Shown here: piece after piece, positions 3,818 to 9,857 of the stretch
How positions within the stretch are numbered: the first letter of the stretch is position 1
Layout: the number at the start of each line of letters is the position of its first letter
Source of the DNA: an uncultured Clostridia bacterium
GTDB taxonomy: Bacteria; Bacillota; Clostridia; Christensenellales; UBA1242
DNA: 53,688 nucleotides
Direction of reading: 5' to 3'
Assembly: GCA_944372445.1 (NCBI GenBank)
Contig: CALVZE010000003.1
Location: forward strand, 67,816 to 121,503
Translations under genes and position numbers: made by a program
The notes under the pieces: generated by a model
Databases searched by the model: none
What the model was told of the DNA's origin: nothing
Seen by the model: the letters and a program-made list of their open reading frames with translations, nothing else

Positions 3818-5098
3818 ATGAAAGATATTGAAATGTATTGCTCTTTTTGTGGAAAGCCACAAAGTAGCGCCAAAAAACTGATTGCAAGCCCTAACGGTGA
3901 CGCGTATATTTGTGACGATTGTGTCAGGATTTGTCTTGATATTGTCAAACAAGACAGCTTAAAGATTAAAGTGTATAAAGACCTTGAAATTCCTTCTCCT
4001 AAGGAAATAAAAAAGCAACTTGATAATTATGTGATAGGTCAGGACCAGGCAAAGAAAGTGCTTTCGGTCGCTGTTTTTAATCACTATAAACGAATTAATT
4101 ATAACAACCATCTTAAACTTGATGGCAAGAAAAAGAAAAGCGAAAGTAATGTTGAACTCGAAAAAAGCAATATTCTGATGATAGGACCAACAGGGTCTGG
4201 AAAAACTCTTCTTGTTAAAACTTTGGCAAAAATACTAGATGTTCCTTTTGCGGTTGCCGATGCTACAACCTTGACAGAAGCAGGCTATGTTGGCGAAGAT
4301 GTTGAAAATGTCCTTTTAAAACTCATCCAAAATGCCGATTATGACATTACGCGTGCCGAGAGAGGTATCATTTATATTGACGAAATAGATAAGATTTCAA
4401 GAAAAAGTGAAAATCGCTCTATAACTCGTGATGTCGGTGGTGAAGGAGTGCAACAAGCCTTACTTAAAATCATTGAAAGCACAATAGCCTCAGTGCCTCC
4501 ACAGGGTGGCAGAAAACATCCTCATCAAGAGATGCTTCAAATCGACACAACAAATATTCTTTTCATTTGCGGAGGGGCATTTGTTGGCTTAGACGATATT
4601 ATCTATAAGAGAATGGCATCCTCAGCACTTGGCTTCAATGCTGAAATCAAAAATTCCTCCGAAAGAGCTAAAATCAACTATTCGCAAGATGTTCAGCCAG
4701 ATGATTTAATAAAGTTTGGTTTAATTCCTGAGTTTGTGGGAAGATTGCCGATAATTACAGGGCTAGATAACTTAGATGCCACTGCCTTAGAAAAAATCTT
4801 GGTCGAACCAAAAAATAGTTTGATTAAGCAATATACTGAGCTTTTCAAAATGGACGGCTTTGAGCTGGAATTTGAAAAAGAGGCAATAGGTTATGTGGCT
4901 AACAAGGCGTTGGAACTTAAAACGGGGGCAAGAGGAATTAGAACTATTATGGAAACACGCATGACCGAACTTATGTATGATTTACCTGACCCTAAGGTGT
5001 ATGAAAAAGTCATAATCACAAAAGACTTTATGGAAAAGGGAGCAGAACCTAAGCTGATTCGAAGAGTGGAAACTGAACCTAAGGAAAGTGTTGGTTAA
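3818..5098 (+). CDS. clpX: Clp protease ATP-binding subunit ClpX
   Basis: CSFC...CDDC zinc finger, [22 protein letters not shown] loop, TGARG. Confidence 0.98.
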
Positions 5099-5105
5099 GT
5101 TTTAG

Positions 5106-5221
5106 GGCGGGCGAAAAAGCGCCTATTGGCGCTTAGTGCGCAGTCGCGCACGAAAATTTTACTTACAATTTTGAAATAAAAAACAAAAAGTGTTTAAAAG
5201 TAAAATTTTCTTTCGCCCGCC
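5106..5221. repeat. Structured four-way-junction element, copy A (candidate ncRNA, ssDNA motif or MITE)
   Basis: Outer stem GGCGGGCGAAA/TTTCGCCCGCC, hairpins AAGCGCC-tatt-GGCGCTT and GTGCGC-agtc-GCGCAC, third arm GAAAATTTTACTT/AAGTAAAATTTTC. Confidence 0.8.
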
Positions 5222-5319
5222 AATTACAAAATATAATATATTTAAGATAAATACAATTATTTAACTTCATTTAATAAATAGATTTAAAAACAAATTTTTA
5301 AAAATGTTTGTCAAAATAG

Positions 5320-5348
5320 TTGACATGCATAAAATATTGTGCTATAAT
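5320..5348 (+). promoter_or_regulatory. Sigma-A promoter of infC operon
   Basis: TTGACA (5320-5325), 17-nt spacer, TATAAT (5343-5348) with extended TG. Confidence 0.9.
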
Positions 5349-5359
5349 CACAAGCGTAT

Positions 5360-5462
5360 GAAAGTAGAAGTTCCCTTCTCACCTGTCGAATTTTGTTTTG
5401 ACATGGTCACAAAATTTAATAATGATTTATTATATTTTGGTAGGGAGCATTCTTTCTGCCAA
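5360..5462 (+). ncRNA. Ribosomal protein L20 leader
   Basis: AGTAGAAGTTCCCTTCTCACCTG ... GGTAGGGAGCATTCTTTCTG between the promoter and infC-rpmI-rplT; resembles the Firmicutes L20 leader. Confidence 0.75.
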
Positions 5463-5488
5463 AATTTTTTTTAAAGGAGATTACGACA

Positions 5489-6004
5489 ATTTTTAAGGAA
5501 CAATTAACGAACGAACAAATCACTGCCAAAGAGGTAAGACTTATAGGCGAAAACGGTGAGCAATTAGGTGTTATGCCTATTGAAAAAGCAAGACAAATCG
5601 CAGATAATGAAGGACTTGATTTAGTTTTGATGTCAGGCAATTCAAATCCTGCTGTTTGCAAAGTTATGGATTATGGCAAATATCGTTTTGACAGCATTAA
5701 GCGAGAAAAAGAACTCAAAAAAAATCAAAAGATAGTTGAGCTTAAAGAGATACAGCTCACTATGCGCATTGATCAATATCATATCAATTTCAAGCTTAAA
5801 AATGCACAAAAGATTTTGCAAGACGGTGACAAAGTTAAAGTGTCGCTCAGAATGAAAGGTCGTGAACAGGCGTATTCAAAAAATGCTGTTGAGGTTGTTG
5901 AAAACTTTGTTAACGCGCTTAGTGAATTTGGCTCAGTTGATAAAAAGCCAGAGATTGTTGGAAGAAATGTAATCGTTGTAATCAATCCAAAAAAGACAAA
6001 ATAA
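5489..6004 (+). CDS. infC: Translation initiation factor IF-3 (ATT start)
   Basis: Frame open upstream of ATG 5573, giving NEQITAKEVRLIGENGEQLG; AAGGAG at 5474-5479 precedes in-frame ATT at 5489; VCKVMDYGKYRF. Confidence 0.95.
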   Translation: MFKEQLTNEQITAKEVRLIGENGEQLGVMPIEKARQIADNEGLDLVLMSGNSNPAVCKVMDYGKYRFDSIKREKELKKNQKIVELKEIQLTMRIDQYHINFKLKNAQKILQDGDKVKVSLRMKGREQAYSKNAVEVVENFVNALSEFGSVDKKPEIVGRNVIVVINPKKTK

Positions 6005-6017
6005 AAGGAGAAAAGTT

Positions 6018-6212
6018 ATGCCTAAGCAAAAAACACACAGTGGTGTAAAGAAGCGTTTTTCACTCACTGCAACAGGAAAAGTTAAGTATGCAAGACCTGG
6101 CAAAGGTCACTTCTTAACAGTAAAAAACAAAAATCGCAAGAGAAAACTTAGAAAGGGGTCTTATATTGCTGGAAAGAACGCAGACAACATTAAGACACTT
6201 CTTTGCAAGTAA
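6018..6212 (+). CDS. rpmI: 50S ribosomal protein L35
   Basis: MPKQKTHSGVKKRF; operon position. Confidence 0.97.
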   Translation: MPKQKTHSGVKKRFSLTATGKVKYARPGKGHFLTVKNKNRKRKLRKGSYIAGKNADNIKTLLCK

Positions 6213-6224
6213 TGGAGGGGTAGT

Positions 6225-6572
6225 ATGAGAATTAAAAGAGGTGTAAACGCAGTTAAAAAGCGTAGAAAAATCTTAAAATCTGCCAAAGGTTATTTTGGTG
6301 CGAAGAGCAAGCTTTATAGAACCGCAAGAGAGCAAGTTATGAAATCTGGTCAATATGCATATATTGGCAGAAAACAAAAGAAAAGAGATTTCCGCGCTCT
6401 TTGGATAACAAGAATTAATGCTGGATGCCGTCAAAATGATATTTCTTATTCAAGATTTATCTCTGGACTTAAAAAAGCAAATGTAGCATTAAACAGAAAG
6501 GTGCTTGCCGATATCGCTGTTCGCGAACCAGAAACTTTTGCTAAACTTGTAGAAACAGCAAAGAAGGCTTAA
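6225..6572 (+). CDS. rplT: 50S ribosomal protein L20
   Basis: [31 protein letters not shown]. Confidence 0.98.
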
Positions 6573-7294
6573 TGGAAAGGGCGAGCAAGGAATTAATTTC
6601 TAACTTAAAAAAGCAAAAACGCGAAAAGTCTTTGCTTTTTTTAGATAATGTTAAAATAATTAAGGATGCTCTACCACACATTAATGTTAAGCTGATTTTA
6701 ACCACTGTTGAAACGCTACCTTTTGATGTAGGCGATATCAAAGTTTATAAAACTGACGCAAAAACTATTGAAATGCTTGCAGATACTGTCACACCGCAAG
6801 GCGTGCTTTGTGTGGCTGAGTTTAAAAAACAAGACAAAGCTGTTCCAAATGGCAATTTTTTGGTGCTTGACACTCTTCAAGACCCGGGAAATGTCGGAAC
6901 GCTTATAAGAACAAGTGTTGCCTGCGATTTTGGTGCGGTATTCTTGGTGGACTGCGTGCATGTCACAAATCCAAAGCTTATAAGAAGCTCGGTGGGTGCT
7001 GTCTTTAATCAGAAAATTTACGAAATGTCAAAAGAGGAATTTATTAAATTTGCAACCTTAAATAATTTACCTCTTGCAAAATGTGACATGAACGGCGAAA
7101 ATATTTTTACAAAGAAATTTGAAAAGCCTATTGGAATTGTTGTTGGCAATGAAGGGCAAGGCGTAAGTGAGGAGATCTCCAAACTTTCTAAAATTTCTCT
7201 TTCCATACCTATGAAAGGCAATATTGAAAGTTTAAATGCGGGTGTCAGCGGGTCAATAATAATGTATCAAATAGCCAAAGAAAATTTAATTTAG
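6572..7294 (+). CDS. TrmH/SpoU family RNA methyltransferase
   Basis: LQDPGNVGTLIRT, VGNEGQG, IPM..IESLNA SPOUT motifs. Confidence 0.92.
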   Translation: MERASKELISNLKKQKREKSLLFLDNVKIIKDALPHINVKLILTTVETLPFDVGDIKVYKTDAKTIEMLADTVTPQGVLCVAEFKKQDKAVPNGNFLVLDTLQDPGNVGTLIRTSVACDFGAVFLVDCVHVTNPKLIRSSVGAVFNQKIYEMSKEEFIKFATLNNLPLAKCDMNGENIFTKKFEKPIGIVVGNEGQGVSEEISKLSKISLSIPMKGNIESLNAGVSGSIIMYQIAKENLI

Positions 7295-7304
7295 GAGGTG
7301 TAAT

Positions 7305-8030
7305 ATGTCAGGTCACTCAAAATGGCATAATATTCAAGCGCGTAAGGGCAAGTCCGATGCTGCGCGCGGAAAAATCTTTACAAAGATTGGACGCGAAATC
7401 GCTGTATGCGTTAAAGCAGGTGGACCTGACCCGAACACTAACAGTAAACTTCGTGACATTATTGCAAAGGCAAAGCAAAACAATATGCCTAGCGATAACA
7501 TCGAGCGCTCAATTAAAAAGGCGTCTGGTGAACTAAGCGGAATTAACTATGAAGCTATAACCTATGAAGGTTATGGAGTTGGTGGTTCTGCGGTTATTGT
7601 TGAATGTCTAACGGACAATAAAAATAGAACTGCAGGTGATGTTCGTCATGCTTTTGATAAACATGGTGGAAGTTTAGGCTCATCTAACTGCGTTTCCTAT
7701 CTTTTTAACAGAAAAGGAATTGTTATTGTTTCTGATGTTAAAGATATAGACGCTCTTATGATGGACGCTCTTGACTTAGGCGCTGTCGATGTTGTTGAAG
7801 ATGAAGAACTTGTGCAGGTTATAACAGAGCCAAATGAACATGTCGCTATGGAAGAGGCTCTGACAAAAAAAGGCTATAACGTTGTTTCGGCAGATACCGA
7901 ACTTGTGCCTGACAATTATGTTGATTTAAGCGAGGAGCAACTCGGCAAATTCAATCGCATGATTGATGCACTTGAAGATTTGGACGATGTTCAAGAAGTT
8001 TTTCATAATGTAAATTTGCAAGATGAATAA
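7305..8030 (+). CDS. yebC: YebC/PmpR family protein
   Basis: MSGHSKWHNI, YEGYG, LTDNKNRT, DLDDVQEVFHN. Confidence 0.96.
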   Translation: MSGHSKWHNIQARKGKSDAARGKIFTKIGREIAVCVKAGGPDPNTNSKLRDIIAKAKQNNMPSDNIERSIKKASGELSGINYEAITYEGYGVGGSAVIVECLTDNKNRTAGDVRHAFDKHGGSLGSSNCVSYLFNRKGIVIVSDVKDIDALMMDALDLGAVDVVEDEELVQVITEPNEHVAMEEALTKKGYNVVSADTELVPDNYVDLSEEQLGKFNRMIDALEDLDDVQEVFHNVNLQDE

Positions 8031-8048
8031 TTTATTCATCTTTTTTTT
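8020..8048 (+). terminator. Intrinsic terminator after yebC
   Basis: AAGATGAATA / TATTCATCTT hairpin followed by a T run. Confidence 0.75.
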
Positions 8049-8064
8049 ATTATGCCGTATATAT

Positions 8065-8172
8065 GGTGGTCGCATGCTCGAAAATTCGAGCCTCGGCGAA
8101 GCCGAGAAAATTTTAGCTCAATCCGTTTTCTTGTTAAATAGCGCGCAGGGCTAAAATTTTTATGCGACCACC
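8065..8172. repeat. Structured four-way-junction element, copy B
   Basis: Outer stem GGTGGTCGCAT/ATGCGACCACC, hairpins GCTCGA-aaat-TCGAGC and CTCGGC-gaa-GCCGAG, third arm AAAATTTTAGC/GCTAAAATTTT. Confidence 0.8.
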
Positions 8173-8192: not shown

Positions 8193-8221
8193 TTGACAAA
8201 ATATGAAAAAAAGTTTAAACT
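8193..8221 (+). promoter_or_regulatory. Sigma-A promoter of rny
   Basis: TTGACA, 17-nt spacer, TAAACT. Confidence 0.7.
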
Positions 8222-8273: not shown

Positions 8274-9857
8274 ATGGGAGGATTATTATTAAATGTCACT
8301 CCTGCAATCGCATCTGTGATAGCAATAGTTTGTCTAATTGCGGGACTTTTGATTGGTGGCGGAGCTATTCTTCTTTATACCAACAAAAAAATGCAAAAAA
8401 ATAAATCAAATGCTGTTAAAATTATTGAAGATGCGTATGCAGAAGCAAAGACAATAAAAAAAGAGGCCCTACTAGAAAGTAGAGAGCAATCACAAAAGAT
8501 AAAAGACGAAGTAGAGCAAGAGGTAAGAAACAGGCGTCAAGAAGTAACAAAGCTTGAAGAGCGCCTAAATCAACGCGAAGAGTTTATTGAAAAGAAAGAA
8601 CTTTCGCTTGATAAAAGAACAGAACAACTAGAAGACGACAAAAAAGAAATTTCTGAAATCAAACAAAATCTTGAAAAAGAGAAAGAAAATTTAAACAGTC
8701 TTAAAGCTCAGGCTATGGAAGAGATTGAAAAAGTGGCAAAAATGAGCAAGCAAGAGGCTGTTGATATGCTTGTAAATACCATGCGCGAAGATGCTCAAAA
8801 GGAAGCCGCAGTCATCGTTAAAAAGATTGAAGAGGATGCAAGAGAGAACGGCGAAGCAAAAGCGCGCGAGATAATCGGACAAGCTCTTCAAAAATGTGCA
8901 ACAGAAACCACGCAAGAGATGACAGTGTCTGTTGTAACTCTTCCAAATGATGAAATGAAGGGCAGAATAATCGGTCGTGAGGGCAGAAACATCAGGGCAA
9001 TTGAAGCTGCGACGGGAGTGGAACTCATTGTCGATGACACACCAGAAACGATAACAATTTCTGGCTTTGACCCAATTAGAAGAGAGGTGGCAAGGCTTTC
9101 ACTAGAAAAGCTCATAACTGATGGTCGCATTCATCCAACGCGCATCGAAGAGATAGTTGAAAAGATGCAACGCGAAGTTGACAAAACGATAAAGCAAGCG
9201 GGCGATGAAGCATGCAACGAAACAGGAATATTTAATTTAAACGGAGAGCTTGTTAAAATTTTAGGTAGATTAAAATATAGAACAAGTTACGGGCAAAATG
9301 TTTTAAAACACTCCATTGAAACATCAATAATTGCAGGACTACTCGCTTCGGAAATGGGCGCTAATGTGAAGATAGCTAAGCGCGGAGGCTTATTACATGA
9401 TATAGGCAAAGCGCTTGACCAAGAACTAGAAGGGACACATGTTCAAATCGGCGTAGAGCTTGCAAGAAAATATGGTGAAAGCGAAGAGGTCGTTCACTGC
9501 ATAGAGGCTCACCACTTTAATGTCGAGTTTAAAACAATTGAAGCAGTCATTGTTCAAGTAGCAGATGCTATATCTTCATCAAGACCGGGAGCAAGGCGTG
9601 ATTCGTTTGAAAACTATATCAAAAGGTTACAACAACTTGAAGAAATCGCCAACAGCTTCAAAGGTGTTGAAAAATCTTTTGCTGTTCAAGCGGGCAGAGA
9701 AGTGCGCATAATTGTGAAGCCAGAAGAAATTTCTGACAGTCAAGCTATGTTTATGGCAAAAGAAATCGCAACAAAAATTGAGAACGAAATGCAATATCCA
9801 GGACATATTAAGGTCAATGTTATAAGGGAAAGCAGATTTGTTGAAACAGCTAAATAA
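8274..9857 (+). CDS. rny: Ribonuclease Y
   Basis: N-terminal TM segment, coiled coil, KH domain (MKGRIIGREGRNIR), HD domain (LLHDIGK), RPGARR. Confidence 0.97.
   Translation: MGGLLLNVTPAIASVIAIVCLIAGLLIGGGAILLYTNKKMQKNKSNAVKIIEDAYAEAKTIKKEALLESREQSQKIKDEVEQEVRNRRQEVTKLEERLNQREEFIEKKELSLDKRTEQLEDDKKEISEIKQNLEKEKENLNSLKAQAMEEIEKVAKMSKQEAVDMLVNTMREDAQKEAAVIVKKIEEDARENGEAKAREIIGQALQKCATETTQEMTVSVVTLPNDEMKGRIIGREGRNIRAIEAATGVELIVDDTPETITISGFDPIRREVARLSLEKLITDGRIHPTRIEEIVEKMQREVDKTIKQAGDEACNETGIFNLNGELVKILGRLKYRTSYGQNVLKHSIETSIIAGLLASEMGANVKIAKRGGLLHDIGKALDQELEGTHVQIGVELARKYGESEEVVHCIEAHHFNVEFKTIEAVIVQVADAISSSRPGARRDSFENYIKRLQQLEEIANSFKGVEKSFAVQAGREVRIIVKPEEISDSQAMFMAKEIATKIENEMQYPGHIKVNVIRESRFVETAK

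Follow-up and report, generated by a model that had tools for sequence, protein, structure and literature searches.

A small, lineage-restricted family of GC-rich intergenic repeats that fold into four-way junctions in uncultured Clostridia

The window analyzed here is a 53,688-nt stretch of contig CALVZE010000003.1 from an uncultured Clostridia bacterium (GenBank assembly GCA_944372445.1). It carries two GC-rich intergenic elements, copy A behind clpX and copy B between yebC and rny, and our analysis shows that A and B are true copies of a small, lineage-restricted repeat family with a common four-way-junction fold. The elements act as DNA repeats: at orthologous spacers, copies have been gained, lost and flipped. 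With modest confidence, we lean toward an explanation in which the family is a nested-palindrome repeat of the kind represented by transposable elements of the miniature inverted-repeat type (MITEs) and repetitive extragenic palindromes (REPs), is co-transcribed with the upstream gene and serves as a 3'-end stabilizer or a cistron insulator. Throughout, G000 denotes the genome holding the window (37 contigs, 1,124,571 bp, G+C 35.7%, completeness 99.74%), and other G-numbers denote genomes of relatives in the same genus. Near-identical DNA to the window was found in chicken-gut runs.

Two junction-forming elements and the family they belong to

Folded as RNA, both copies formed a closed four-way junction with a minimum free energy of -57.4 kcal/mol for A (z -8.26) and -52.5 kcal/mol for B (z -7.12), and 0 of 200 shuffled sequences were as stable in either case. 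The complementary strands were nearly as stable (-56.9 for A and -48.2 for B), and with DNA parameters the minimum-energy folds were the same junctions (A, -44.0, z -9.9; B, -32.9, z -6.7). A preliminary description of this DNA, made from the sequence alone, had drawn this junction at both sites, and the sequence and the folds agree with it, including the two short hairpins (P2 and P3), the third arm (P4) with a loop of about 30 nt and the single unpaired junction base; the third arm is 13 bp long in both copies. That base is an A between P2 and P3 in copy A and a T in copy B. The GAA loop pointed out earlier in B is present on its 6-bp hairpin P3. Within the window, the motif GAAAATTTTA...TAAAATTTT occurs in A and B only, and 0 of 100 shuffles of the window had as many matches. 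The terminus of A, GGCGGGCGAAA, recurs at other loci and in other genomes.

We scanned both strands of G000 with a descriptor of our own, which looks for two short hairpins and a third arm enclosed by a perfectly paired outer stem of 7 bp or more. The top six matches were A, B and sites on contigs 13, 33, 26 and 2. A further copy on contig 7 scored only 23, given that its outer stem has an interior loop, and was identified as a four-way junction via its fold. All five of these additional copies formed four-way junctions, with z scores from -6.0 to -10.1. A second scan, in which 3,164 windows at 791 GC-rich seeds were folded, found two more, a copy on contig 4 and another that overlaps tRNA-Asn, bringing the elements of this architecture in G000 to at least nine. 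A candidate at positions 16-129 of contig 25 was dropped given that its fold was not a four-way junction (z -3.0). As a background, the descriptor gave one weak, GC-rich match in 638 kb of unrelated Clostridia-like metagenome loci; a metagenome scan with ClpX found no close relative, with a top identity of 68%. Five of the nine G000 elements belong to one family by their conserved termini, namely, A, B and those of contigs 33, 2 and 7. The termini are exact in A and the contig-2 copy and degenerate yet paired in the other three. The earlier suggestion of a repeat family was therefore borne out by further copies both in G000 and in relatives.

The family is non-coding and 108-135 bp long, with a terminal inverted repeat of 10-13 bp that constitutes the closing stem (P1). 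Its consensus termini are GGGCGGGCGAAAG...CTTTCGCCCGCCC, and the long arm starts with GAAAATTTT. Comparison with the orthologues in G075 gave the constant parts as GGGCGGGC(GAAAG)...(CTTTC)GCCCGCCC together with the arm base GAAAATTTT. The two inner hairpins are short and GC-rich, and they vary in sequence between copies with the pairing kept. In exact or degenerate form, the termini occur at five loci in G000 and in at least nine other genomes. An alignment of seven copies with MAFFT failed (mean column identity 40%, helices out of register), and sequence alignment alone is thus insufficient to define the family. The single-sequence model R1, run unfiltered on the fetched loci, recovered all copies and scored B at 44.9 bits.

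The pattern GGCGGGC-N85-130-GCCCGCC had 25 matches in 10 of 151 genus genomes, compared to 2 genomes for a reversed control pattern, and the paired termini lay 100-138 nt apart. By genome, there were five matches in G075, five in G150, two each in G000, G138 and G140, and one in each of five others. Every match that was folded was a four-way junction, i.e., 15 of 15 in relatives (10 in seven genomes and 5 in G075) and 2 of 2 in G000; three matches in G150 and one in G131, the latter resembling coding sequence, were outside the folding set. R2, a covariance model built from 14 members, placed the family in at least 13 of the 151 genomes, in counts that are lower bounds given that 25 candidates per genome were scored. 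The copies within G138 share one P2 stem, and the same is true within G140, such that paralogues are alike.

The preliminary description had taken the fully paired but divergent stems of A and B as covariation, and the larger alignment confirmed this. Of the 500 pair cells in an alignment of 14 members, 97.6% held standard pairs, compared to 64.8 +/- 1.5 in shuffles (0 of 500 reached the observed value) and 36-49% when partners were slid by 1-3 columns, figures to be read with the caveat that the alignment was fitted to the structure of the model and the sequences are related. Both sides had changed in 33 of 37 pairs, including all pairs of the two short hairpins.

No known RNA family accounts for the elements. 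Rfam 15 gave no match anywhere in the window at the gathering score; in a permissive search, A matched only a plant microRNA model (E 0.42) and B matched nothing, and at the loci of the other copies only 5S rRNA and tRNA were found. The lack of an Rfam family suspected earlier thus held for A, B and the further loci, and so did the suspected undescribed status, as far as the parts of the literature available to us extend: in these, work on REP, REPIN, MITE and template switching describes no four-way-junction repeat in Clostridia. ARAGORN found 32 tRNA genes in G000, none of them on the contig of the window. The idea that the termini were copied from a tRNA 3' end was rejected, given that 0 of the 32 tRNAs had a matching end.

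A scan with the 11-mer termini across one genome per prokaryote species returned 53 loci. Seven belonged to Candidatus Caccovivens faecavium or uncultured Clostridia, 33 to a distinct, roughly 105-nt repeat of one Halothiobacillaceae assembly, and the remainder were single matches in other phyla. Extension of the family beyond the genus was rejected after 3 of the 33 Halothiobacillaceae loci and 14 single matches were folded, none of which formed a tidy three-hairpin junction. The Halothiobacillaceae repeat (loci L266-L317), from a gammaproteobacterium and unrelated to the family, is present in high copy number and has the identical 11-nt terminal inverted repeat, GGCGGGCGAAA...TTTCGCCCGCC, which may be a coincidence or may represent a common recognition sequence.

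Gain, loss and inversion at orthologous spacers

The arrangement of clpX followed by A was also found in G152 and G075. G152 is 91-92% identical to G000 at the DNA level, with 24.6% of clpX third codon positions differing, and G075 is about 80% identical. Between G000 and G152, the closing stem of A is identical, its long arm and long-arm loop differ very little and the P2 stem is kept; from the P2 loop through P3, about half of the positions differ by an estimate made by eye, and P3 nonetheless remains a perfect hairpin in a flanking spacer that is about 95% identical by the same kind of estimate. No A-like element was seen in the clpX loci of the 29 relatives first examined, where plain terminators were present and some loci end at contig ends, and none follows clpX in G046.

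At the site of B, the spacer of G152 measures 28 nt compared to 140 nt in G000, and the entire element is missing. In G085, an element whose termini are typical lies about 100 nt upstream of rny, and the DNA match extends into the 3' part of this element; G138 has one behind the yebC terminator. Compared with the elements of these two genomes, the termini of B differ by changes on both stem strands. For the copies on contigs 33, 2 and 7, G075 has orthologues whose termini are the same and whose inner hairpins differ.

A rearrangement was seen in the rpsL-rpsG spacer. An element with termini of another type is common to G000, G075 and G046 at this site, and its three hairpins occur in reverse order in G075 and G046, which indicates that the interior was inverted between the arms of the closing stem. 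It is present in 3 of 30 genus spacers that were folded and read by eye; the other 27 are without it, several of them with different inserts. Taken together with the absence of B from G152 and of A from G046, this result shows presence/absence differences at orthologous spacers, a check that the preliminary description had named. The rpsL-rpsG spacer, normally compact, is a hot spot for varied inserts in the genus; in G056, it holds another closed three-hairpin element, which is AT-rich and has an outer stem of 13 bp.

Copies A and B are covered by DNA contigs from two other studies, in which few changes are seen. Among the differences listed, those within the species affect the long-arm loop of A and the closing stem of B, where one extra C follows position 8167 in the 3' strand in the DNA contigs of runs X3 and X9. 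Given that no partner on the 5' strand was listed, this C would form a one-base bulge in the stem of those strains.

Gene order around the two copies also varies. In four relatives (G003, G020, G008 and G019; loci L013-L016), clpX is directly followed by rny. In G000 and G085, a block of infC, rpmI, rplT, a methyltransferase gene and yebC lies between the two, and in G000, A and B bracket this block. The idea that A and B mark the ends of a relocated gene block found no specific support, given that G085 has the same order as G000, that G075 has clpX, A and infC through yebC without rny, and that gene order is fluid in the genus.

Explanations at the DNA and RNA level

The two strands of the elements differ in their wobble pairs. 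In the four core helices, 16 of 821 pairs on the mRNA-sense strand were G-U, versus 4 of 798 on the other strand; 11 elements had more on the sense strand, 2 had more on the other and 9 were tied. The excess held as well in a copy with reversed arm order. This asymmetry is only suggestive, given the small counts and the non-independence of related sequences. The sense strand also had the more stable fold in most copies. With respect to their genes, 14 of 24 elements read short-short-long in the sense direction, 5 read in reverse (antisense) and 5 were unclassifiable, which by locus amounts to six sense, two reverse and one mixed. One copy lies within the rpsL-rpsG operon, and none of the seven G000 elements tested contained an internal terminator-like hairpin with a T-run. 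As to which folded form matters, the evidence points both to single-stranded DNA and to RNA.

We propose that the elements could duplicate to new sites and settle immediately after a housekeeping gene's stop codon or terminator. In six of the seven G000 copies scored, the distance from the stop codon of the co-oriented gene to the element ranged from an overlap of 13 nt to 34 nt behind it, the 5S-linked copy being the sole exception, and several elements begin no more than 8 nt past the stop codon. Given that the G000 elements have no internal terminator, they would be transcribed together with the upstream gene. In the transcript, the stable four-way junction would most likely block 3'-to-5' exonucleases or insulate cistrons from one another, similar to REP in E. 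coli. Selection on the sense-strand fold would probably keep the pairing perfect, perhaps aided by template switching between hairpin arms. Template switching can create and maintain perfect stems (PMC8794818), and it is plausible that switching during replication contributes to stem perfection in these elements.

Several known systems resemble the family. A REP consists of a single 20-40-bp palindrome headed by GTAG or CGTC, and a REPIN of one long hairpin; in proteobacteria, REPs are co-transcribed and able to protect upstream mRNA, and the REP of E. coli acts as a barrier or insulator. Like the elements described here, the REP/REPIN-RAYT systems are GC-rich extragenic palindromes at gene 3' ends, occur in either orientation and are gained and lost between relatives. 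Our units differ in being closed three-hairpin junctions of 108-135 nt that start with GGGCGGGC and have a 13-bp terminal repeat, in occurring without a RAYT gene in G000, and in their copy number of at most about 10 per genome. REP, BIME and REPIN elements are treated in PMC3116915 and PMC3733652; in this literature (PMC3733652), the REP unit is a short, imperfect palindrome whose GTAG or CGTC head is conserved. Bacterial MITEs such as Correia/NEMIS, ERIC, RUP, BOX and bcr1 share with our elements a length of about 100-150 bp, a non-coding and intergenic nature, terminal inverted repeats, presence/absence differences and likely co-transcription; MITEs are reviewed in PMC3184786 and PMC10969869. 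Unlike MITEs, the elements here have no target-site duplication and no parent insertion sequence that we found, and their interior is kept in shape only, with inner hairpins that vary and are still perfectly paired. Fungal mitochondrial GC clusters, or double-hairpin elements, have in common with the family GC-rich palindromic modules in AT-rich spacers; they differ in residing in organelle genomes and in having other sequences and folds. These clusters are thought to be mobile, and we know of no four-way junction with fixed termini described for them. The palindromic modules themselves are the subject of PMC4478555. The family is a variation on known palindromic intergenic repeats and not a new principle.

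A number of observations weigh against the co-transcribed MITE/REP-like repeat that we lean toward. A search of the 99.74%-complete G000 with PF01797 gave no match to a RAYT gene, compared to matches in 6 of 14 control genomes, and the HUH/RAYT link suggested in the preliminary description therefore found no support in G000. The flanks of 23 elements showed no consistent direct repeat that would represent a target-site duplication. No parent insertion sequence of the family was seen: the terminus 12-mer had 24 matches in 154 genomes with no pair of termini far enough apart to flank a gene, in an analysis whose transposase search was limited to PF01797. The copy number of the elements is low, with at most six matches per genome detected by model R2. 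In the G075 orthologue of the contig-33 copy (locus L218), our scan flagged a terminator-like hairpin within the long arm, and in copies of G150 (loci L243 and L252) such a hairpin was recognized by eye in the long arm and was not flagged by the scan; with a terminator in this place, the full junction could not form in the terminated RNA. About 98% of stem pairs are Watson-Crick, the order of the arms can be inverted and elements are found in both orientations, which would equally fit a pure DNA palindrome. The G-U asymmetry amounts to 20 pairs in related sequences and could partly reflect strand-biased C-to-T mutation. The RNA-type runs X16 and X18 had no cover over A or B and were uninformative either way, and co-transcription and the stabilizer role are accordingly ones that we infer. 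On the neighboring genes, the contigs of X18 differ by about 8-10% and may stem from a relative. In some relatives (G150 and G075), the long arm encloses an A-run, a hairpin and a T-run and resembles a bidirectional or sense terminator, such that these copies may double as portable terminators.

If the co-transcribed repeat is the correct reading, small-genome gut Clostridia carry uncatalogued structured intergenic repeats of the REP/MITE type. The family also represents a natural experiment in how helices remain perfect during sequence turnover, one that is traceable between related species: the fixed termini, the fast-changing inner hairpins and the inversion in place can all be followed from one relative to another. 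The neighboring genes are essential (clpX, infC, rny, rpsL, rpsG and tRNA synthetase genes), and the elements may set mRNA stability there. For annotation, it matters that the elements resemble RNA genes or terminators.

We considered that the family might instead be a dedicated cis-acting RNA motif of the 3' untranslated or intercistronic region, spread by duplication, in which the four-way-junction shape is the functional unit and could offer a binding platform to an RNase, to a ribosomal protein or to some other protein that binds RNA. This is possible and in our judgment doubtful. The strong covariation, the G-U preference of the sense strand and the consistent adjacency to stop codons all suit it, as do the persistence of orthologues across a difference of about 25% in clpX third positions or a DNA identity of about 80% and the position of the rpsL-rpsG copy, which is plausible for ribosomal protein feedback. 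However, no loop or junction nucleotides are conserved, with conservation confined to the closing stem and the arm base; at one locus, close relatives have the arms in opposite order, and the elements occur in either orientation relative to the genes. In addition, B is dispensable in G152, the neighboring genes are functionally unrelated and Rfam has no match.

An explanation at the level of DNA only, which we place after the RNA motif and consider improbable, holds that the nested palindrome is a cruciform or a single-stranded fold in replication that is maintained by template switching and spread or removed by host recombination. The nearly equal folding of both strands, the same junctions under DNA parameters and the roughly 98% Watson-Crick stems argue for it, and so do the interior inverted between conserved closing-stem arms and the loss of the entire element in G152. 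Similar structures past 5S rRNA and tRNA genes hold the terminator of the gene in the long-arm loop, such that the terminated RNA would be unable to form the junction. The preference of G-U wobbles for the mRNA-sense strand (16 versus 4), also seen in arm-reversed copies, stands against a purely DNA-level role; in most copies, the better fold is that of the sense strand, and the tight abutment on stop codons suggests a constraint linked to RNA or translation.

A bolder idea, to which we give little credence, would make the element a transposase-free, self-maintaining folded-DNA parasite or tool whose perfectly stacked junction mimics a Holliday junction, with host enzymes of junction processing and of template switching in replication copying, flipping, excising and rewriting it and with the same fold in the sense transcript serving as a portable mRNA 3' cap. 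If true, it would constitute a class of mobile elements whose defining feature is shape and not sequence. That A and B are unrelated chance hairpins or unusually elaborate intrinsic terminators is contradicted by the data and very improbable, even though they lie downstream of genes and terminators typically take the form of GC-rich hairpins within AT-rich spacers, given that z scores run from -6 to -10 with 0 of 200 shuffles as stable, that termini and arm motif are common across loci and genomes, that the closing stem has no T-run behind it, that yebC has its own hairpin and T-run ahead of B, and that one copy sits within the rpsL-rpsG operon.

Gene context, coordinates and related structures

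The placement of the copies past stop codons and before promoters, as given in the preliminary description, was confirmed (Table 1). A lies 7 nt past the clpX stop codon and B begins 34 nt past that of yebC, with an AT-rich hairpin and T-run in between. Sigma-70-like promoter matches were found downstream of A at 5320-5348 (12 of 12 positions) and downstream of B at 8193-8221 (10 of 12). The claim that yebC has a terminator of its own upstream of B was likewise supported by the fold of the hairpin and T-run, a likely terminator; a consensus terminator scan did not list this hairpin, given that it has fewer than three G-C pairs. The terminator scan of the window listed neither A nor B, the sequence after the closing stem is AATTACAA in A and CTCAAACA in B, neither of which is a T-run, and the four-way junction is indeed more elaborate than a terminator, as had been remarked.

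Table 1. Coordinates of the two elements, their parts and adjacent genes in the window, and of second-family repeats on G000 contigs
Feature	Position	Strand	Basis
clpX; stop codon 7 nt before A	3818..5098	+	ORF; Pfam AAA_2, zf-C4_ClpX
Copy A, complete four-way-junction element, GGGCGGGCGAAAG-terminus family	5106..5221	+	RNA and DNA folds; best match of models R1/R2
A closing stem P1, 5' strand GGCGGGCGAAA, 11 bp, partner 5211-5221	5106..5116	+	fold
A hairpin P2, 7 bp, loop TATT	5117..5134	+	fold
A hairpin P3, 6 bp, loop AGTC, fastest-changing part of A	5136..5151	+	fold
A long arm P4, 13 bp from GAAAATTTTA, 33-nt loop	5152..5210	+	fold and motif search
A closing stem P1, 3' strand TTTCGCCCGCC	5211..5221	+	fold
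yebC/TACO1-family gene, 5' of B	7305..8030	+	Pfam PF01709, PF20772
AT-rich hairpin and T-run, likely yebC terminator, between yebC and B	8020..8049	+	fold: 10-bp stem, z -3.4
Copy B, complete four-way-junction element, diverged termini GGTGGTCGCAT...ATGCGACCACC	8065..8172	+	RNA and DNA folds
B closing stem P1, 5' strand, 11 bp, partner 8162-8172	8065..8075	+	fold
B hairpin P2, 6 bp, loop AAAT	8076..8091	+	fold
B hairpin P3, 6 bp, loop GAA	8092..8106	+	fold
B long arm P4, 13 bp from AAAATTTTA, one G-U pair, 28-nt loop	8107..8160	+	fold and motif search
rny (RNase Y), start 101 nt past B	8274..9857	+	Pfam RNase_Y_N, KH, HD
Second repeat family, G000	contig 1: 3407-3597, 107885-108130; contig 2: 17645-17818, 27967-28163		
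Second repeat family, G000, also	contigs 25, 27, 29, 35, 37; flanks of the contig-4 element (L174 2501-2556, 2825-2890)		

By Pfam, A lies between clpX and infC and B between yebC and rny. The further G000 copies are found between an acetyltransferase and a DUF4011 helicase gene, an O-methyltransferase and an unknown gene, a class-I tRNA synthetase gene and alaS, rpsL and rpsG, and a release factor gene and a convergent pilin-like gene. Upstream of infC-rpmI-rplT, positions 5356-5477 (+) gave a full-length match to the L20 leader RF00558 (41.8 bits, gathering 58.7, E 3.9e-06), which is probably a divergent but real L20 leader, separate from A.

The same architecture lies behind the 5S rRNA gene in 18 of 31 genus genomes (in G000 on contig 13, 1-220; in relatives, loci L140-L169). 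There, the final 25 nt or so of the 5S rRNA pair with a downstream inverted copy, and the loop of the long arm holds the rrn terminator. The downstream strand is broken up by two variable hairpins, often GCACAC..GTGTGC and GTTTTGC..GCAAAAC, and in five species there is a long hairpin without them. Behind each of two tRNA genes (G000 contig 13, 5427-5570; G008 locus L129, 3523-3636) lies an inverted copy of a tRNA segment, internal or 3'. Two GC-rich hairpins split the copy at the position of the anticodon loop or the T loop, and the resulting four-way junction includes part of the tRNA.

G000 also contains a second repeat family that is conserved in sequence, with a core like GCGACCAA.CGCA..TCGC....GTTGGCGA.TTGGTCGC and further conserved blocks. 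It has many occurrences, often near contig ends, and pieces of it match 26 places in G075. Related inserts are present in the rpsL-rpsG spacer of G053, G068 and G042.

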